Part shown: positions 1 through 25,630 of the stretch, piece by piece
How positions within the stretch are numbered: the first letter of the stretch is position 1
How the letters are laid out: every line of letters starts with the position of its first letter
Source: a virus
Strand: one strand, 5' to 3'
Virus record (IMG/VR): IMGVR_UViG_3300010167_000860
Coordinates: 71,964 to 105,836 of that record
Length of the DNA stretch: 33,873 nucleotides
Notes under the pieces: model-generated
The model's input: the letters and a program-made list of their open reading frames with translations, nothing else
Databases searched by the model: none
Told to the model about the DNA's origin: nothing
Position numbers and translations under genes: made by a program

Positions 1-1352
1 CCTGCTTTTCCTGTTCCTTTTAAAGCATACTGTCCTATTTCTCCTCCTATCCTGCCAGCCCCTTCTAAAGTCATATTTCCTGAACTTCCTTCTAAACCAT
101 CTCTTATAGCACTTAAAAAGCCTCTGTTACCTGTATAACTCTTCCTAAACAGGTTTTTAAACATAACCATATTAGATATAGCAAGAATAGGGGCATTAAG
201 AGAAAATGTTACAGCAGCTACTCTTTTAGCATTTTTATCAATACTATTCATAGCCTCAGACATTCTTTGGTTGTATATTTGGTTATAAGCATTCTGGTAT
301 TCCTCTTCTGTATCATATATAGTCATACTTAAATCTTTCATAATATCATTATGAATAGACTGTTGTACTTCCTCAGAATTTAACTCCTGCATCATATTTT
401 GTTTAAATTCATCAGAGGTATGAATACCTTCTATCCTGCTTTCCCCTGCTACAGCAACTGCATTAGATAATATATTAGTAGCAGCTCCTCTTCATTTTAA
501 ACTATTAGCGTGATTAGCAAGTTCTTTACCTCAATTAGTAGGATTATTTATTATAGCCTTTTCAGCCTGTTTTACATATTTAGCTACATCTTTACTTGCT
601 CTTTGGGCAGTAGTTAATGATTCCCTTGCAGCTGTTTGTATAGCATTTCTTGCAGCAGCTGCTCCTGTCATTTTAGCAAATGCTAATCCACTTACTGCTC
701 CTGCTCCTACTGCTCCTAATGTAAAACCTACAGAAGTTAATCCTTCAGCCCAAAAAGCTACATCTCCCATATTTTTATATCATTGTCCTAATTCTCTATT
801 AGCCCTATATTGGTCAGAAGTATGTATTTTAAAAGCATCAGCAACTGCATTTTGTAATCCAAAAGTAACATTCTTTGAATATCAGTTATTAACAAAGGCA
901 TCTCCTAAGCTTGCTGCTCAATTAATATCCTCTTCATCACTTGTTGCATTTAATAAAGATTGATAACCTAACTGTAATAACCCAGCAGCAGTACCTATAA
1001 AACTATCAGCAAAGGTAGTTCCTGCTATAGCAAGCATATTAACTGCTGAGTTACCTAATTTACCTGCTGCTGATTGTCTATTAGCTCTTATATCTTCTAA
1101 TGATTGGTCTCCTTCAGTCAATCTTCTTCAGGGAATATTTTGGTCAAATTTACTTTCTCCATAATCATCAGGTAGTAAATGCCCTATCCTACTATCCATA
1201 TTTCTTTGGTTAGCATAATTATGAAGAGTACCTTGCCCTAATCAAGGAGTTGCTGAAGATATTGTATTATCATTTCCTGGTTGTATTACATCCTCTTTTG
1301 TAAATAAATCATCAAATTGATTAGGTATTATTCCTTTTATATTGTATTTCAT
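1..1352 (-). CDS. N-terminal part of a very large virion cargo/ejection protein (crAss giant virion protein cluster); runs off the window
   Basis: ATG at 1352. Track ORFs 918..1121 and 531..770 share this frame and are separated only by TGA. Motif DYGESKFDQ...LEDIRANRQ followed by Gly/Ala-rich hydrophobic helices resembles N-termini of crAss giant virion proteins. Position follows the cargo genes. Confidence 0.7.
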
Positions 1353-1358
1353 ATTATA

Positions 1359-2063
1359 TTATAATTTTATAGGTATTTCTTTACTCTTTATTCTATTTTC
1401 TTCTATTTTTAAAAATTCTTGTTCAATTATTGGGTTTACATATATAACAACAGCTAAACTAAAAGAGCTGGGGTGTTTTAAAACATCATTATTAGCTAAT
1501 AAATTTTTAAAAAACCCTTCTTTAATTACAGATATTTTAAATCTTTCGGAATGATTATTATGTTCATTTATTCCAACTTTATATTCAACCTTCAAATTTT
1601 TATTGTAATCTCTAATAAAATGTTTTTCTTTTATAAATTTGCTATAATTGTCTATAATAACTTTAGTATCATTAAATTTACCAAATTTACTAACTATTAA
1701 ATCATATAGACTTTCTGCTTTTGTTATGCCTAATCCTTCATAATCAACTACAACCATACAAAGTTTATTATCATAAAAATAAAAATCTCTTCTTTTTATA
1801 TGGGTTTCATTAACATATTCAATATATAACATTAAATTTTCATTTCTCATATAATAATAAGGGACATTCTTGTAATTATTAGAACTTTTTAAAAAGAAAG
1901 GTTCTACAGCAGGATAATACTTCTTAACCTCCTCAACACTTGCGCCCCATTCTACTTTATCATATCCTATAATAGGAGATTGTGAATATAATACTTTAAT
2001 AAAAAATAATAATATTAAAGTAAACAAGTTTTTATTTTTTAAAATATTTTTTAATTTTTTCAT
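1359..2063 (-). CDS. Hypothetical exported protein (signal peptide-like N-terminus), third gene of host-like cassette
   Basis: 234-aa ORF intact in standard code. Basic N-terminus, hydrophobic stretch and VLYS-Q cleavage-like site. Confidence 0.65.
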   Translation of the reverse strand: MKKLKNILKNKNLFTLILLFFIKVLYSQSPIIGYDKVEWGASVEEVKKYYPAVEPFFLKSSNNYKNVPYYYMRNENLMLYIEYVNETHIKRRDFYFYDNKLCMVVVDYEGLGITKAESLYDLIVSKFGKFNDTKVIIDNYSKFIKEKHFIRDYNKNLKVEYKVGINEHNNHSERFKISVIKEGFFKNLLANNDVLKHPSSFSLAVVIYVNPIIEQEFLKIEENRIKSKEIPIKL

Positions 2064-2090
2064 TATAATAGTTTATATTGTATATTATTT

Positions 2091-3155
2091 TTAAATTTGA
2101 ATTTTTAAACGGTATTCTTTAGGAATATAAGAATGTCTAAACTTTTTATAAGCAAGATTATGAGCTTCAATTTTTGTCCATTTCTTAATTATAAATTGTT
2201 TTGGAGCTTTAATTTTTTTAAAATTAATAGAATTTATATCCTTTATTACAACTTTAATTAATTTAACACATAATTCAGGATGCTGAAAGATTTGTTGTTC
2301 TGCGAACCTTATTACAATCCATTTATTATCTGTGAAAAAATCATTTCTTTTCTCATCAATAGATTTATGGTTTTCAAAATAATGAATAGGTTCTCCTGTT
2401 TCAGCATTATATGGTTCATCTATTTCTAAATTGATAACTATTTTTTTACTGTTATTAACTAGTATAAAATCAGGAAAATACCCCTTATTGTTAGAGTTAG
2501 GTATATAAATTTTACAGTCTGTATATATTTTAAAATTTTTAAGAATGTTTAGGAACGAAATAAAAAAAGTTTCAGATACTCCCTTTTTTATGTAATTTTC
2601 TTCGTAAATTTTTGAAATATCTAATGGAGAGTATTCAAATAAAAATTCTTTTAGTCTTTCTTGTCTAAATTTATAAATATTTTTTTTAGATTGAATATCT
2701 TTTTTATCCTTCTCAAATAAAACCATTAATTTTTTATACTCAATTTTGTCTTCTTCATATTTTTTTACTTTATTGTGGTAATTTTGTAAATCTTTCCGAT
2801 ATTTATTTTCTTTATCTATGTTAGATTCCCTAGAGCCAAAGTAAAATATACTACAAAAAACAACTAATATTATTAATATAACTAAATAAGTTATCATTTC
2901 CCCTCCCCCCACTATCCCATTACTTATAAGAATTATAATAGTAATAATAAAAATAGCACAAATAATTAGAAGTACACCTGGAGAAGAATTATCTTTTTCT
3001 GGGGGTTTTGGATCTTCAGGAAATTTTGGTTCTTTAGGCTCTTCTGGTAAAGGGGGGAAATCTTTACTTATTTTAATAATTTCTCTTGGTATATATACTT
3101 CTGGATATGTTTTATAGTTTGTTGAAGTAATATTAATTATTTCTGATATTTTCAT
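2091..3155 (-). CDS. Membrane-anchored PD-(D/E)XK nuclease, DUF559/Vsr-like
   Basis: 354 aa: Pro-rich linker, two hydrophobic helices, coiled coil, then C-terminal YFPDF...LEIDEPY...H...DEKRNDFF..NKWIVIRFAE, typical of DUF559-like endonucleases. Confidence 0.7.
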   Translation of the reverse strand: MKISEIINITSTNYKTYPEVYIPREIIKISKDFPPLPEEPKEPKFPEDPKPPEKDNSSPGVLLIICAIFIITIIILISNGIVGGGEMITYLVILIILVVFCSIFYFGSRESNIDKENKYRKDLQNYHNKVKKYEEDKIEYKKLMVLFEKDKKDIQSKKNIYKFRQERLKEFLFEYSPLDISKIYEENYIKKGVSETFFISFLNILKNFKIYTDCKIYIPNSNNKGYFPDFILVNNSKKIVINLEIDEPYNAETGEPIHYFENHKSIDEKRNDFFTDNKWIVIRFAEQQIFQHPELCVKLIKVVIKDINSINFKKIKAPKQFIIKKWTKIEAHNLAYKKFRHSYIPKEYRLKIQI

Positions 3156-3925
3156 AATACTAATTTACTAGTTATTAATTTTTTCACCCACGTAATAAAA
3201 CTTTTCACACAATTAAACTTTATAGGTTTAATATTTTCAAATTCTTTCCACCCTTCAGAATTTTTATACTTTTCTATTGATTTATAAGGAACTTTAAGAA
3301 CGCATTTTGTTTTATCCATTCCTCTAAATACTTTTTCTCCAAGTTTTTGGGGTTCAGTAGCATAATTTATAATTTCATTCAAACTTTTACATAAATAAAA
3401 AGCAGAGTATTCTATATATTTTACAGATTCTGGAATTATTATATAAGTTAAATTCAAACATTTACAAAAAGCATAACTTTCAATTGTTTCTACTGAATTG
3501 CCAATAATAATAGACTGTAAATTATGACAATCTCTAAAAGAATGATTCCCAATATTAGTTACAGAATTTGGAATAATAACAGAAGTTGCAAATTTACTTT
3601 TATCAAAGGAATAGTCTCCTATTGAAGTTATTCCATTTTCTATAATAATATTATTATAACAGTCTCTGTAATAATACCAAGGGGAAGGATAAAACCACGC
3701 ATTTTCTTCTGGATTATCAAAAGACTGATAATCTGGAATTACCCCATTACCTTTAATAATAATTGTTTTATTATCATAAATAGTCCATTTAATATCACTT
3801 TCTGTATCCCACTTTCTTCTATAATATGTATTTTTATTATATTCATATATTTTACCATATTCAGAAGTACAGTGTTTTTTTTCTAATTTTATTTCACCTT
3901 CATATAATATATTTTTACCACTCAT
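3152..3925 (-). CDS. BspA-type leucine-rich repeat (LRR_5) protein
   Basis: Repeats such as IIPNSVTNIGNHSFRDCHNLQSI and IIPESVKYIEYSAFYLCKSL, with C-cap LKVPYKSIEKYKNSEGWKEFENI. Ends at TGA overlapping the next ATG (ATGA). Confidence 0.85.
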   Translation of the reverse strand: MSGKNILYEGEIKLEKKHCTSEYGKIYEYNKNTYYRRKWDTESDIKWTIYDNKTIIIKGNGVIPDYQSFDNPEENAWFYPSPWYYYRDCYNNIIIENGITSIGDYSFDKSKFATSVIIPNSVTNIGNHSFRDCHNLQSIIIGNSVETIESYAFCKCLNLTYIIIPESVKYIEYSAFYLCKSLNEIINYATEPQKLGEKVFRGMDKTKCVLKVPYKSIEKYKNSEGWKEFENIKPIKFNCVKSFITWVKKLITSKLVL

Positions 3926-3944
3926 TTTTATCAGTTTAAAAATA

Positions 3945-3952
3945 CAAAGATA
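3945..3952 (-). promoter_or_regulatory. Bacteroidota sigma-A -7 element (TATCTTTG) upstream of the 3-gene cassette
   Basis: Matches TAnnTTTG, about 20 nt upstream of the ATG at 3925, in an intergenic gap. Confidence 0.55.
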
Positions 3953-3986
3953 TATAGTATTTTTTAATTTCCTATCATTTTATTTG

Positions 3987-6422
3987 TTAATCATCAAAAG
4001 GATTAGTCTTTGAAGAGGATAATGATGATAACCATCTATCATTAAATATATCTTGAACATACATACCATATAACCTTTCTAAAGTTATTATATTCTCTTT
4101 TACTTCCTTTCCTTTTTTCCTCATTTCCTCCTTTACTTCATTACTTATAGTGTCTATATAATAAGTAGCAAACGGATTTTTACCTTGATAAACTCTTTGT
4201 ACATCATAAGTTTCTCCTCTATAATTAAACTCCCCGTTAAAGAAAAAAGGAGTATTCCTAAAATGAGAATAAGCAGCATCTACAAATTCAAAATTAGTTG
4301 CCATTAACCCGTCAACAACTGATACTGTATAATTATTGCCTTTTTTATCTTTTACTTCATAATCCATAGTTGTTCTACCTACTTTATCATTAGATGAAAA
4401 TCCTAAATATGAATTATCTTCCCTTGCTTTTTCCTTTATATAATCAGAAGTTAAACCTTTACTATTTAATTCTCTATCAGTAAGTCTTTTCCCCGAACTA
4501 TCAAAAACATAATAAAGATTATTAGGAATATTATTAGCTACTTTTTTTATTAATCTCTTATCTGCTATAGTTATTGAATTATCATCTGCTAAATATCTTT
4601 GTCCTCCTAATATTGATTGGCTTTCTATATCTGCTAATACTAAATTTCTTACATCATCATCATCTAATCCAGGATATTTTTCCTTCATAACATCTAAACT
4701 TTTCATTAAATTACCATTATGAGAAAGTAGATCAATATTATTATTTATACCTTCTGCTGTTCCAAATTTAGATGTAGGACTATCACCTTGTAATGTTAAT
4801 CCTGTGGAAATTAATCCAACAATATTCATAGTTCTTGCTGCTGTCCCTACTGCTGCTGCTTTTTTCCCTAATTTTGCAGCAGTATCAGCTGATGCTTGCA
4901 AAGCTTTTCTATTTAATCTTCCTGATACAAAATTAGTAGTCAATGCCCCTGTTAAAAACAATGAACTTCCACCTGCTAATAACCCTGTAAGTAAAGTATT
5001 AGCTCCTTCACTGTCTATTATTCCTAACTCACTCATTTGTTTTACTACATCTTGTAATATATCAGGATTATCTCTGGATTCCTTGTATAAAACAGAGGCT
5101 ATTGTAGCATCAACAACTTGTTGAGAACCTCTTTGATTAAGGGATAATAATTTTTCATAATCTATTTCTCCTTCTTCAAAAGGATTAATAGTACTATCTC
5201 TCAACATTCTTTCAAAAGGAGTTAGATTTTTATTAAATTCTATAACATCCCTTCTTGATTTACCTGGACCTTCTTTAGACATTTCTTTAATTCCATAATA
5301 TAATTTATCTTCATAAGACATATTATCTACATCATATTTAGATCCTTCTCATTTGTTTGTGTTATTATTCCAACTTCTCACATTTCTTAAAACATCCTCA
5401 TACTGTTTAATTTTTTCTCTATCAGTCTTATTTATCAATGTTTCATTATTATCAATCATTTTTTGCTTATCTAACTCTGTAAGTTCCTTATCATTTGTTG
5501 TTCATTTAGGAACTCCACTGCCTCCTCCACTCCCTTTTAACCTCCTATCATCCCCCACAACATTATACTTAGTATCTAATATCTGTGGTTTAGTTTCTCC
5601 TATAGCAAAAGGATTCATTGTTGCTAAGGCATTATCAGCTTCCATACTTTGTTCATAATTACCCCATCCTGAGCCTGTACCATCTTCATTAAAATATCTG
5701 GGAGAGCCTATTCCGTGAGCATTTAAAAACCCATCTCTTACATCAGTTAAAAATTCTTCCATAGCTTCCCCTGGTTGTAATCCATAATGTAAAAGAGCTA
5801 CAAACTTATCAGGCATACTGGCTAATCCTTCTAACTTTCCTTGTTCATTAATTTTTAAAAACTGTTCATTTGTTAAAGTTTGTCCTCTTGTTATACCATT
5901 ATATAATCTTTGATAGTTTGATATAACTTTAGCATACTCTTCCTTCATTTGTTGTTTATCAAATACCTGAGACATATCAGGAGGTTGTAATCCATTATCA
6001 TACATTTCTGATGCTGATGTTCTATTAAACCCTACTATCTTACCTGAGGCTATCATATTATCCCTTTGTAGATTTACTGCATTTGATGCTTCTGCTGCTG
6101 CTGTAAACATACCTACAGTACCTGAGTATTGTCTTTTTAAATCATTAAAATGCCTCATAGTACTACCTGTAATTCCATTCTCTGATAAGGATTCAGCACC
6201 TTCTCTAAGACTTGTATTATAAGCATCTCAATCCCTTCTCATTTTACTTCCCTCAGGGGCATTTTCAGCTAAAAACCCTGCTTTAGCAGATTCAGACATT
6301 AATTCTCCGTATCTTTCTTCAGCCTTATCATGTCTTTCCCTCATTATCATAGCAGGTTGTAATATCTCCTGCATAGTCATAGGGGTATATTGAGCTTGTG
6401 TATAGTGATTATATCTGTTCAT
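3987..6422 (-). CDS. Virion cargo protein, about 811 aa (TGA=Trp)
   Basis: Track ORFs 6228..6422, 5502..6158 and 3987..5321 are one frame joined by TGA codons. N-terminus MNRYNHYTQAQYTPMTMQEILQPAM resembles the crAss protein that follows cargo protein 1. Confidence 0.75.
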
Positions 6423-21694: not shown

Positions 21695-24600
21695 CTATGC
21701 AGCTAAGATGCTTGGTATGAGAGCTATACTGCGGTTAGGGTCAAATACTATAACCCCTAAAGCAGCCATCCTATGAAATACTGCACTATCTTCGTCATAA
21801 GAAGCATTTTGGTTATTTACTCCTCCTGTAAAAGGATTTCTAAATGGACCTCATTGATAACCTCTATAATCTTCTTCTCCTCTAATCTTAGCTAATTGAA
21901 TATTAGGTTGTCCTGGACTACCTATATCATATATATCAAATCTATAGCTATTAGCTACCCCGCCAAGAGGGTGAATTATCTTATTCCTTACTGTATCATC
22001 TAAAGTAGGATCTATTTCAATCTTAACTTTAATGTTATTAGCAAATTGCCATTCTACAAACTGAAAGCCTCCTGTTAAAGCATTACTGTGTAATGGACTT
22101 GATGTATTCTGTATAATAGCAGGATTACCTCCCATTCTCATACCATTTACAAAAGGTATCCATCCTGAAGCATAATTTGTTACTGCTTTATGAAATAAAT
22201 TAGCTCCTCTTTGTCCAGTATACATTACAAAGGTTCTTTCACCAAAATCTAATACCCCTGTAGAAATTTCAAATAAAATATCTTCAATAAGTTTAAGATC
22301 AAATTCATTGTAATAATATGTATTACCATATTCTTGCTGTTCCCTAAGCAATTATGTTACCTTATAGGCTCTTTATCCTATAATTCTATACCTATGTGAT
22401 TTTGGTATAGTTCAGAGTACATTTTCACCCTCTTAAAATAAAGTTAGGGTGTGAACCTCTCTTGGGATTTTATTCTCATTAAATATGAGTTTATTATTCC
22501 TACTCGTTACATTGGTTAAAGGCTTTTAAACCCCTAACTTAACACGGTATTGCCTTTTCTTATCACTAGGTTTCACCGTTTTAGGTTCATTTTCTTATAG
22601 CAGCTTTCTTATGCTGCTATGCGGGCATTAAGGGAGAACAGCCTTATTACTTTACCCGCTCCCATCTGAATAACATTACCTGACTTACCTACATTAGCAT
22701 ATTCACCATTCTGAGACCTGTTACTTCTGCCATACACTAATAAAGTATTCTTTTGTTGTGAAAAAGTCTCTTCAAGTACATATTCTACATGATGCCTATT
22801 TTTATTTAAAGTGATTCGTTATTTCACTTTGAGTTAACTAACAACTCCTCATAGTCTCCTATGAGATTGGACTATATCTTCAACCTATTTTATAGGTGTC
22901 CCCCATTTCACACCACTTGGTGTTATGCCTGTATTACAGGACTTACTAGCCTCTGAACCTTCCATATTACTATGGCTTGGCTGCTGATAAACTCTATTTA
23001 TTAATTTGTTACTTTGTTTGTGTTTAGAATTTGGATTATTATTCCCTATATGGTTTTTATTCCCTTCTCTAAAAGAATGTCTAATATTATCAGCCCTTGT
23101 TAATCACTCAAGATTAGAAAAAACATTATTTAATCTATTACTATCTTTATGATTAACTTCTTCTGCATTGTCTATTTTATTTACAAATAATTCTGCCACA
23201 ATTACGTGTAGAAATTTATTTGCTTTTTTACCAGCAGGTCTATTATTAAAATACATTCTTCTATATCCTTTAAGAGTAGCCATACCAAAAATTTCTTTTC
23301 CAGTTTCAGTATTATAAATTCTACCTAAATTTGAAACTTTATAGATTCTATCTACTATCTTATATTTTTTAAATTTTTCTATCACAATCATTAGTATTAA
23401 TAACTTTACAAGTCTTCCCAGCAATTAAAGGGATTTATTTTTTGCAACTTACGCTGCAAGTGAACACATCTTTTTTATCCACAAATTAACTGTAACTTCC
23501 TTACCTGTGTTATTTACAAAAGGAATAGGCATCAACAATTTCTTGTTAAGCATATTACCACCTACTTTATGCTGTATTCTTATTCTACTAAATTCATTTC
23601 TCATAGAGATAGGTGTTGCAAATCTTACCATTTTGTTATCTTAGAGGCTCTTTATCCTCTAATTCTATACATCGCTGTATAGTTCGGAGTACATTTTAAC
23701 CCTTAGCCTAACTATTAGGGTCTGGACACTCTTGGGGAAATTATACCGTCTTTAATATATTGTTTCTTACAAGGATACTTTTAATTGTAGCATAATCAAC
23801 TAAATATTTTTTAGATATTTCTTTTATGCCTATTCCACTATTATACATATTTATAATATTAATACTTTCATTACTATCTATTTTGTAATGTCTTTTCTTA
23901 AATTCAATATTATTAATAGCAAGAATTTTTTTAAAAGTATTATAACTAATATGAAATTTTCTTAATAGTTTTTGCAAAGTAATATTAGTTTCTGTTCATT
24001 CTTTTATAATAGATGCGCACAAATCTATATCTTCTAAGATATTAATTTTATCTTTAAATTGAAACCCTTTGGAAATTAAAAACTCCTTCATTGTTGTAGG
24101 AGCTACCCCAAATAATGGACCTAATTTTTTAAGTGAACATCCTTTTTTAAATGATTCTATAATTTCTGTAGTATCTATATCATCTGGAGTAAATCTTTTT
24201 GGTTCTCTAACCTCTATTCCACAACTTTTTAAAAGTTTTTTAATAGAGGCTTTATCCACTTTATACTCTTTAGATATTTTATAACAACTGTGTTTTTCTA
24301 CAGTATATAGATAAACAATATTTTCTAATATGTTATCATCCAAATACAATTCTAATCTTTTACCTTCTCCTCCTATTGTTGAATTGTATCCATTTTTAAA
24401 ACTATTATATTCAGAGATATAATATATTTCTCTTTCACTAAGTTTACTTATTGGACATACTTCTAATTCCTCAACTATAAAGTTATCTTTCCCATATTTG
24501 CTTATAGCATTATGAAAATGACAATTATCTTTCTTTACACAGTGTTGTCTTCATCTAAATTCTAAAGGCATTACTGTTTGTCCTATATAAACTTTATTGT

Positions 24601-25630
24601 TTACTTTATTTGTTATTTTATATATCCGACCTTCCATTCAATTTTATATATTAAATATTCTCATTCCCTACTCTCTACGGTGCTTAAAACTGTTAATTTT
24701 AAGTTACCTCGGTATTATCTACTTGAGATTTCCACCGATTTTGCCCAATTTTTTACTATGCTGCTAAGCATAGGGAGACATAAGATTCCACTTTATCTCC
24801 CGCTTTTCTTGAAAATTCCTTCTCTATGGGATTATATTCCCAGCTAAATCTTTTCCCAGGTTGTAATTCTTCAGCAGGCATACCTCCATATACTGCGCCT
24901 AGTAATTCAACCTTATAACAGTAGTTATTACCTTCCATTGTAGCATCACCTAATATTCTCAAAGGATATATTTCATTCTTTTCACCGGCTAATACCTCAC
25001 CATCCGCAAAATAATCCTCAGCAAATACTAAATAAAATGGTTCTGTATTTACACCTACATTAGCAGTTGTTCCTGTTACAGTATTACCATCATAATCTCT
25101 TGCCTCAATCAAAGGAACATTCTTCCTTGCACTTCCTATCAACTTCCACATAATATCACTATCTTCTTCAAAATATTTTGTTGGAAATCTTGATAAAAAG
25201 CTTTCTAAGTTCTTTCCGTGATTCTGCTCCATCAATCTTAAATAGACATTAGAAGCCATTTGAGGTTTATCACCAAAAGCTGCACTAAGGTGATTATTCT
25301 TAGTTACCAATTTTGTTATCCTACAGGCTTTTTATCCCATAGTTCTTACAGTTTACCATCCTGTAAGTTCGGCATATATTTTTAACCTGTTGGCTAATCA
25401 GGTTATTGGAGGCTCTTGGGGGTTTTTATTCTCTTTATAGTTTCAACCCCTATGCTCTACATTGTTTAAATCTCTTTAATTACTTAACTTAACACGGTAT
25501 TTTCCTAATCCTTGGGGGAATTTACCGTTTTCCTCCAATGTTTACCTCTATGTTACCATAGAGGGGGGCATAACTACTGTCCACCCTTTCACGTGCTAAA
25601 TTCCCTCATTACAAATTTACCTAAAGCCAT
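21695..25630 (-). CDS. Major capsid protein, 502 aa, five exons: 25583-25630, 24795-25307, 23477-23628, 22654-22795, 21695-22348
   Basis: Exons total 1509 nt in frame. Junctions give (W)KG|VTKNNHL, SRKAGD|VRFATP, NLWM-HHVEY (split codon AT|G) and QMGAG|LREQ, colinear with the crAss MCP as recalled (WKGLT.DNHL, SRKVGDVRF, MWMHYV, TGAGIFEQ). TGA lies at conserved Trp positions (codon 14 and RGYQ(W)G). Confidence 0.93.
22349..22653 (-). mobile_element. Group I intron 4 of MCP (305 nt, ORF-less)
   Basis: 5' exon ends in U (GCGGGU) and pairs with IGS GCCCGC; P7 GAGUA/UACUC; terminal G. 3' motif GAUAAAGAGCCU..GGUAACAUAAUUG is shared with introns 1 and 2. Confidence 0.88.
22796..23476 (-). mobile_element. 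Group I intron 3 of MCP (681 nt) carrying an HNH endonuclease
   Basis: Canonical elements: P AAUUGCUGGGAA, Q AUCAGCAGCCAAG, R GUUCAGAGGCUA, S AAGAUAUAGUCC. Exon GUGGAU pairs with IGS GUUCAC; terminal G. Confidence 0.92.
22885..23391 (-). CDS. Intron-encoded NUMOD4/HNH homing endonuclease (I-HmuI-like), about 168 aa (TGA=Trp)
   Basis: YKVSNLGRI...GY...LHVIVAELF...VNHKDSNRLNNVFSNLE(W)LTRADNIRH; TAG at 22885. An alternative TTG start at 23424 is possible. Confidence 0.88.
23629..24794 (-). mobile_element. Group I intron 2 of MCP (1166 nt) carrying a GIY-YIG endonuclease
   Basis: Exon GGGAGAU pairs with IGS GUCUCCC; P10 AAUCUUA pairs with 3' exon UAAGAUU; P7 GAGUA/UACUC; ends GAUAACAAAAUG. Confidence 0.9.
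23741..24637 (-). CDS. Intron-encoded GIY-YIG homing endonuclease with C-terminal HTH repeats, 298 aa (TGA=Trp)
   Basis: MEGRIYKITNKVNNKVYIGQT...R(W)RQH...AISKYGKDNF...EREIYYI...GYNSTIGG. In frame with track ORFs 23996..24349 and 23741..23977. Confidence 0.9.
25308..25582 (-). mobile_element. Group I intron 1 of MCP (275 nt, ORF-less)
   Basis: Exon GGGU pairs with IGS GCCC; P10 UAGUUA pairs with 3' exon UAACUA; P7 GCAUA/UAUGC; ends GAUAACAAAAUUG. Confidence 0.88.

Follow-up and report, generated by a model that had tools for sequence, protein, structure and literature searches.

Group I introns of phages and bacteria, the intron of the T4 td gene among them, admit the reading frame of the upstream exon for a few codons and then stop it within the P1 or P2 helix; this early in-frame stop spares the ribozyme core from ribosomes, and an upstream ribosome aids folding (PMC3073962). 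Here we describe a gene whose introns share this arrangement and in which the intronic codons end in a recurrent manner. The gene lies on the minus strand (21695-25630) of a stretch of 33,873 nucleotides (hereafter the window; positions 71,964 to 105,836 of IMG/VR virus record IMGVR_UViG_3300010167_000860); it is the major capsid protein (MCP) gene of a crAss-like phage and is interrupted by four group I introns. When the exon frame is continued into introns 2, 3 and 4, the resulting tails end in LAA, LAA and IAA, respectively (that is, in a nonpolar residue followed by Ala-Ala at a free C-terminus). The known feature of T4 td-type introns is the stop itself, whereas here the last two or three residues before it appear to have been selected as hydrophobic-Ala-Ala. 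Comparison of these introns with their relatives leads us to propose, with a probability of roughly 0.65, that the tail acts as a C-terminal degron on capsid fragments made from unspliced RNA. Phage group I introns are usually seen as neutral because they splice, and the protein made from their unspliced RNA is ignored apart from the early stop; to our knowledge, nothing has been described about the coding content of the extra intronic codons.

In Escherichia coli, a C-terminal LAA is the end of the ssrA tag that ClpX recognizes, and LVA variants are degraded as well. The tails resemble the tags encoded by transfer-messenger RNA (tmRNA; AANDENYALAA in E. coli, GENNYALAA in Bacteroidota) in that [L/I/V]AA-COOH stands on an incomplete protein, usually before a UAA stop, and the logic, quality control of truncated products, would be the same. 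They differ in that the tail is encoded by an intron within the mRNA, with no trans-translation, and in that only the last two or three residues are similar, the tails having no SspB-type upstream part. Genuine trans-translation tags are ruled out as a description of the tails, since the intron DNA itself encodes them and a search of the phage record gave no tmRNA gene. C-terminal alanine on incomplete nascent chains is also known from Bacillus subtilis, in which RqcH adds untemplated Ala on stalled 50S subunits as a ClpXP degron; there the residues are added without a template, whereas here they are encoded. The nearest published analogue is eukaryotic: unspliced yeast HAC1 mRNA carries an intron-encoded degron, a C-terminal tail that condemns the protein from unspliced mRNA as a fail-safe (Di Santo et al. 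2016, PMC5114014). That system differs in involving an Ire1/tRNA-ligase intron, a ubiquitin-proteasome degron and a single regulatory gene, and not a mobile self-splicing family. A full-text literature search on group I or self-splicing introns together with degradation tags returned nothing that describes such a tag as encoded by a bacterial or phage intron.

The exons, introns, open reading frames (ORFs) and read-through tails of the gene are given below in the order of transcription (PF23898 is the Crass_capsid profile; the intron families A and B are described further on).

25583..25630, minus strand: MCP exon 1 (MALGKFVMREFSTWKG), aligning to the N-termini of intronless homologues
25308..25582, minus strand: intron 1, 275 nucleotides (nt), family A, without an ORF; preceding U, 3'-terminal G, and a core that covaries with relatives
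Stop at 25576-25574, minus strand: intron 1 read-through tail GQ, then TAG (exon frame continued)
24795..25307, minus strand: MCP exon 2, PF23898 profile positions 19-190 (E = 4e-50)
23629..24794, minus strand: intron 2, 1166 nt, family A; 3' core homologous to introns 1 and 4
24753..24794, minus strand: intron 2 read-through tail KVESYVSLCLAA (...LCLAA), Ala codons GCA GCA at 24764-24759
24637-23741, minus strand: GIY-YIG homing-endonuclease ORF inside intron 2 (Pfam PF01541 match)
23477..23628, minus strand: MCP exon 3, PF23898 positions 191-237
22796..23476, minus strand: intron 3, 681 nt, family B, phase 2 (split codon at/g, Met), with the AGATATAGTCC motif
23449..23478, minus strand: intron 3 read-through tail (at+a = I)KKMCSLAA, Ala codons GCA GCG at 23457-23452, TAA at 23451-23449
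23424-22885, minus strand: HNH/NUMOD4 endonuclease ORF inside intron 3 (HNH_3 and NUMOD4 matches)
22654..22795, minus strand: MCP exon 4, PF23898 positions 239-284
22349..22653, minus strand: intron 4, 305 nt, family A, without an ORF; core covaries with relatives
22609..22653, minus strand: intron 4 read-through tail KVIRLFSLNARIAA (...ARIAA), Ala codons GCA GCA at 22617-22612, TAA at 22611-22609
21695..22348, minus strand: MCP exon 5, PF23898 positions 286-495; native end ...IPSILAA, then TAG (21706-21695)

A first-pass annotation of the window had reported the tail peptides of introns 2, 3 and 4 with their coordinates, and had called intron 1 (GQ, then stop) free of the tag; all of this was verified. 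The Ala-Ala pattern holds beyond this one gene in the sequences that we compared. For a survey at the DNA level we assembled 17 split MCP genes (the present gene, eight more found by scanning viral contigs for a motif and eight via protein identity) and located their exons in six frames with a hidden Markov model (HMM) built from 100 intronless MCPs. These genes contain 33 introns of two families at no fewer than 13 insertion sites, near HMM positions 124-127, 148, 153, 189-192, 242, 272-277, 283, 288, 333, 400, 405 and 453-456 (an additional site near position 292 is known from protein fragments only). Their exon-frame tails, ranging from about 4 to 27 residues, end in AA in 24 of the 33 introns, in VA in five, in IA in one and in other residues in three (...KS, ...VY and ...LQ); the intronic stop is TAA in 28/33 and TAG in 5/33. 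One more MCP intron, outside the 33, has the tail KLLAA followed by TGA. The most fragmented example, L199 (a 29 kb ENA scaffold; 325-5252), has its MCP gene in at least five pieces, with intron ORFs of the GIY-YIG, LAGLIDADG and (twice) HNH types and with four tails, DLYAA, ...YSNVA, LHRAA and ...YELAA. The 14-base motif scan was loose: BLAST and checks of motifs showed only about half of its 118 loci to be true family-A introns. When viral contigs were scanned by peptide pattern with exon 5 alone there was no match, and an alignment-based scan gave intronless MCP genes only.

A second survey used proteins. The exon-2 ORF, searched against a protein collection at similar lengths, retrieved about 110 truncated crAss MCP fragments (gene-caller products of intron-split genes), which we mapped on the MCP HMM and whose non-homologous C-terminal tails we then read. 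AA stands at the end of 48 of the 70 unique pairs of site and tail, compared with a background of 8/798 among ordinary ORFs of crAss-like loci. In the phage genome itself, only 3/112 ORFs of 80 or more residues end in AA, and one of these is exon 2 read into intron 2. The corresponding protein search with exon 5 at near lengths gave no new intron tails, because all matches reach the native C-terminus. If the window alone is considered, with only three tails of which two (introns 2 and 4) are related, the ending might pass for coincidence within one gene; dozens of related genes share the ending, at many sites, which refutes this, and we give it next to no credence. As a separate observation, minority MCP tails (in L176, L206 and protein fragments, at HMM positions 148 and 186-189) are strongly hydrophobic (...LVIVY, ...VIIIL, ...VVIL and ...CSLLQ); such tails might be a second class of C-terminal signal or degron, or they might merely reflect AT-rich sequence. 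Where the stop is TAG, a second stop backs it up (TAG TAA or TAG TAG): in intron 2, TAG (24758-24756) is followed by TAA (24755-24753), giving a tandem stop at 24753-24758 on the minus strand, and further cases are found in L200 (~9000) and L201 (~8394).

We then asked whether the ending belongs to the exon frame or to the RNA in which it is written. The comparison of frames proposed in the first-pass annotation finds Ala-Ala-stop in the exon frame of 24/33 MCP introns and before only 1/245 TAA or TAG stops when the same regions are read in frames +1 and +2 (0/65 if only first stops are counted; Fisher p about 4e-26 for exon frame versus other frames, not corrected for relatedness). All four synonymous Ala codons are used at the two positions (GCA 22, GCT 16, GCG 11 and GCC 5), which argues that selection acts on the peptide, and where the first Ala codon is borne by a stem its third base covaries with its partner (GCAGC-GUAA-GUUGC versus GCUGC-GUAA-GUAGC). 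The ending is accommodated in four RNA contexts, namely the internal guide sequence (IGS; at sites 148, 400 and 405), the P2 5' strand together with the GUAA loop, a larger P2 loop and the P2 3' strand; families A and B both show it. Peptide-level selection for the Ala-Ala ending is well supported by these comparisons.

The ending could instead be a by-product of RNA structure and descent, an ancestral GC-rich P2 or IGS (GCNGC) beside a GUAA tetraloop having simply been inherited. Most MCP introns do belong to one family, and introns 2 and 4 share TAGCAGCATA; a GUAA tetraloop supplies the stop (UAA) in 9/33 introns, with the Ala (or Val) codons forming the stem next to it; and in places it is the exon-pairing IGS that spells the Ala codons. 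An accidental RNA element of this kind should, however, fall in a random frame (in the exon frame about one-third of the time), and 24/33 in frame departs from that expectation (binomial p = 4e-6), as does 1/245 in the other frames. It would also have to be reconciled with the free variation of P2 in other introns of the same family, intron 1 of the present gene among them, and with tails of about 4 to 27 residues in four structural contexts, two families and at least 13 sites, in which third codon positions vary. A GCNGC-stop lying in P2 irrespective of frame, which the first-pass annotation had named as evidence that would count against its proposal, was not seen: GCNGCN-TAR is never present in 28 family-A introns with non-AA tails that come from other viral contigs and lie outside crAss MCP genes (their P2 being, as a rule, an AT-rich stem of no fixed sequence, closed by a GNRA loop), and in the four introns of the non-MCP family-A set that do carry it the motif is in the exon frame every time (4/4). 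We therefore consider an RNA by-product quite improbable.

Introns of the same family in other genes provide a further comparison. Among the family-A introns that lie outside crAss MCP genes and have a reliable upstream host-gene ORF of at least 100 residues (n = 15), two have AA tails (one in an ORF matching a Mu-gpT-like major head protein and one in a terminase large subunit gene) and one more ends in VA; introns in genes for DNA polymerase A (two cases), ribonucleotide reductase, NrdD, a PolB-type exonuclease, a tape-measure protein and a terminase have non-AA ends. The difference between 24/33 crAss MCP introns and 2/15 introns of other genes is significant (Fisher p = 1.6e-4). In GenBank phages, an intron in a crAss-like ATPase gene has the tail ...NSVIR, and one in a Staphylococcus phage tape-measure gene ends in ...YIAQ. 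The tape-measure gene of Clostridium phage phiCP13O (NC_019506.1; L327, 847-1524), which infects C. perfringens, a Firmicute, is split by a family-A-like intron, and its upstream piece as annotated ends ...GAKLLVA-TAG, an LVA-type end. In two crAss-like contigs with intronless MCP genes (L045 and L052, ~300-1300), a family-A core lies about 6.6 kb upstream of the MCP gene and the tail is ...GSDVLI; the intron-bearing gene upstream of MCP in L045 had no Pfam match.

These data also bear on the possibility that selection for Ala-Ala-stop acts on translation or on the peptide, but for some purpose other than proteolysis, for example fast and clean termination with a ribosome release that lets P1 and P2 refold and splicing proceed, or recognition by a non-protease factor. 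Frame specificity and synonymous codon use fit any peptide-level or codon-level selection; the strong stop TAA is used in 28/33 introns, and tandem stops (TAG TAA, TAG TAG) occur; and both the early in-frame stop of group I introns and a role of the ribosome in their splicing are established (PMC3073962). Yet a good termination context should be common in highly expressed phage genes, and Ala-Ala-TAA ends only about 1% of ORFs, while a termination role predicts Ala-Ala in same-family introns of polymerase and reductase genes, in which it is rare (2/15). The hydrophobic residue at position -3, moreover, matches the ssrA end and not any termination rule known to us. We hold a non-proteolytic role to be unlikely, if the most serious of the alternatives.

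Degradation, by contrast with a termination role, would account for that residue: L, I, M, V or Y occupies position -3 in 31 of the 36 unique AA tails. Tags of the same type exist in Bacteroidota, in which ARAGORN reads tmRNA tags GENNYALAA, GETNYALAA and GEENYALAA, each followed by a stop, in Prevotella, Odoribacter, several Bacteroidales metagenome-assembled genomes, Flavobacterium and Sphingobacterium; these genomes were retrieved by searching for the GENNYALAA-type motif, and the existence of such tags is therefore shown, not their prevalence. ClpX scored above the curated cut-off in four of the five of these Bacteroidota genomes that were checked.

The degron would work as follows. Because transcription and translation are coupled in bacteria, ribosomes following RNA polymerase would reach the 5' splice site and read into the intron before splicing. 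Translation would stop at the in-frame stop in P1/P2, releasing an N-terminal capsid fragment that ends ...[L/I]AA and that would be degraded, like an ssrA-tagged protein, by host ClpXP or another protease that reads the ssrA end. Fragments able to co-assemble with full-length subunits, and so to interfere with capsid assembly, would not accumulate, and introns would thereby become less of a burden to the virion gene that is expressed most highly. The comparisons bear out the anatomy and the peptide-level selection; translation of the tail in vivo, its recognition by a protease and a benefit to the phage are inferred. We also find it slightly more probable than the contrary that a hard-coded mimic of the ssrA tag has arisen repeatedly in capsid-gene introns (at least two families and four RNA contexts being involved), by which quality-control proteases would clear the products of unspliced mRNA.

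Several observations weigh against such a degron. The full-length MCP of this phage itself ends in ...IPSILAA, and so do native proteins elsewhere: an AA end is found in 18/120 intronless homologues (QG in 65, mostly as ...ILQG), the native MCP end being a conserved IP[AS][IV]L motif whose last two residues vary (QG, AA, VG or SA). A native 228-residue protein of the same phage genome (L330, 848-1534, equal to G000:C1 54847-55533, plus strand) ends in ...RNKSLAA; its ORF lies directly upstream of a radical-SAM gene and has no sign of an intron, since the next gene starts 4 nt later. LAA must therefore be tolerated on at least some native proteins and is not always fatal. We know of no study of ClpX recognition of ...LAA in Bacteroidota. 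A Bacteroidota host is presumed for this phage from its crAss-like classification (PMC7886860). At some sites the Ala codons are IGS and hence partly dictated by exon pairing (exon GCAGU, IGS GCUGC). The counts are phylogenetically non-independent, because most of the introns are of family A and have spread within the MCP gene. Finally, there are exceptions, namely the ...LVIVY, ...CRLLQ, ...VIIIL and ...SLLQ tails and intron 1 of this gene. A buried C-terminus could reconcile the native LAA end with a degron; the AlphaFold2 model of a full-length MCP homologue (mean predicted local distance difference test score, pLDDT, of 47) is too poor to judge burial of ...ILAA. The native ...ILAA end of the full-length MCP had gone unmentioned in the first-pass annotation. 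Separately, the tails as copies of the native MCP C-terminus are excluded, since native ends are mostly ...ILQG or ...ILVG in the same genomes.

If the proposed degron is real, introns would be carried at almost no cost, and this could be why crAss-like capsid genes put up with four or five of them. Given how seldom introns of enzyme genes have the tail, the driver would then be the poisoning of capsid assembly by truncated subunits, which would have to be harmful enough to drive convergent evolution. Introns would carry a previously unrecognized protein-coding adaptation to their host gene, the yeast HAC1 fail-safe would have a bacterial and phage counterpart, and C-terminal Ala-Ala would be a working degron in Bacteroidota. 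There would also be a practical use in annotation, in that ...[LIMV]AA-stop in the exon frame, within about 90 nt, would serve as a simple signature by which to find the 5' splice regions of introns when crAss-like genes are fragmented.

The assignment of the gene rests on the fit of its pieces. Five minus-strand pieces match PF23898 and tile profile positions 19-190, 191-237, 239-284 and 286-495 with no gap or overlap, and the spliced MCP of 502 residues gives a single end-to-end match to positions 4-499/500 of the HMM; exon 5 is homologous to the solved structure of crAss001 gp32 (7QOF, E = 1e-71). Splice sites were set by aligning the exons to intronless homologues and were then refined for exons 1 and 3; the junction of exons 3 and 4 reads NLW-M-HHVEY, the WMH motif of the homologues. 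The virus record is 105.8 kb long, with 29% G+C and an estimated completeness of 92%, and the public sequencing runs that contain DNA of this phage are termite-gut metagenomes; among the public runs listed, none of RNA contains it. TGA is read as Trp in this phage, since long ORFs appear only under that reading; Yutin et al. (2021, PMC7886860) have described such recoding as well as group I introns in the MCP genes of crAss-like phages. A megablast search of the locus against GenBank phages gave no match.

Rfam 15 (Intron_gpI, RF00028, and all other models) gave no match to the four introns, at the gathering threshold or at E <= 10, and the identity of the introns is therefore argued from splice-site rules, exon tiling and covariation. 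Many AT-rich introns of phages are known to escape the Intron_gpI model. The AT-rich introns of this MCP gene are likewise invisible to standard RNA annotation, despite the covarying core of family A. A U precedes all four introns and a G is the last base of each (...AAAATTG, ...AAAATG, ...AAATAG and ...TAATTG). Folding gives P1 helices with a U.G pair at the splice site (GGGU/GCCC, GGGAGAU/GUCUCCC, GUGGAU/GUUCAC and GCGGGU/GCCCGC for introns 1 to 4, respectively), the P1 sequence of each intron differing along with the exon sequence at its site. Introns 1, 2 and 4 form family A, which we take to be like the T4 td intron and for which 13 ORF-less relatives support 29 consensus pairs, with compensatory changes at 20. 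Intron 3, with its AGATATAGTCC motif, represents the distinct family B, and relatives of it occupy the same site in L146 and L202. Single-linkage BLAST of whole introns merged everything, because endonuclease ORFs and exon flanks are shared, and the two families were told apart by motif signatures. On this evidence, four td-like group I introns split the MCP gene, and self-splicing activity is predicted for them.

In all four introns the fold places a P2 hairpin directly after P1. The P2 of intron 1 is CCUCUAUG-GUAA-CAUAGAGG, and its tail stop lies before the hairpin. In intron 2 (UAUGCU-UAGC-AGCAUA) the Ala codons and their stop are in the loop and the 3' strand. In intron 3 (UUGCAGC-GUAA-GUUGCAA) the Ala codons are in the 5' strand, with the stop within the GUAA tetraloop, and in intron 4 (AUAGCAGC-AUAAGAAA-GCUGCUAU) they are again in the 5' strand, with the stop in the loop. 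The first-pass annotation had likewise, and correctly, assigned Ala-Ala-stop to the 3' side of P2 for intron 2 and to its 5' side for introns 3 and 4, and its view of intron 3 as a phase 2 intron with a core unlike those of introns 2 and 4 agrees with the separate family B. Its further suggestion that the three tails arose independently stands in part: intron 3 belongs to another family, but introns 2 and 4 are related, sharing the 10-mer TAGCAGCATA in the same frame, and their two tails therefore probably share ancestry.

Two further features connect introns 2 and 4. Intron 4 (22620-22653, minus strand) holds TTCTCCCT, a near-copy of the guide GTCTCCCT of intron 2 (24765-24794), its own working guide being GCCCGC, and the exon sequences directly before the two introns are similar (GCGGGAGAT and GGGAGCGGGT, respectively). 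Together, the near-copied guide and the similar exon sites suggest that one of the two introns gave rise to the other by transposing into a similar site of the same gene.

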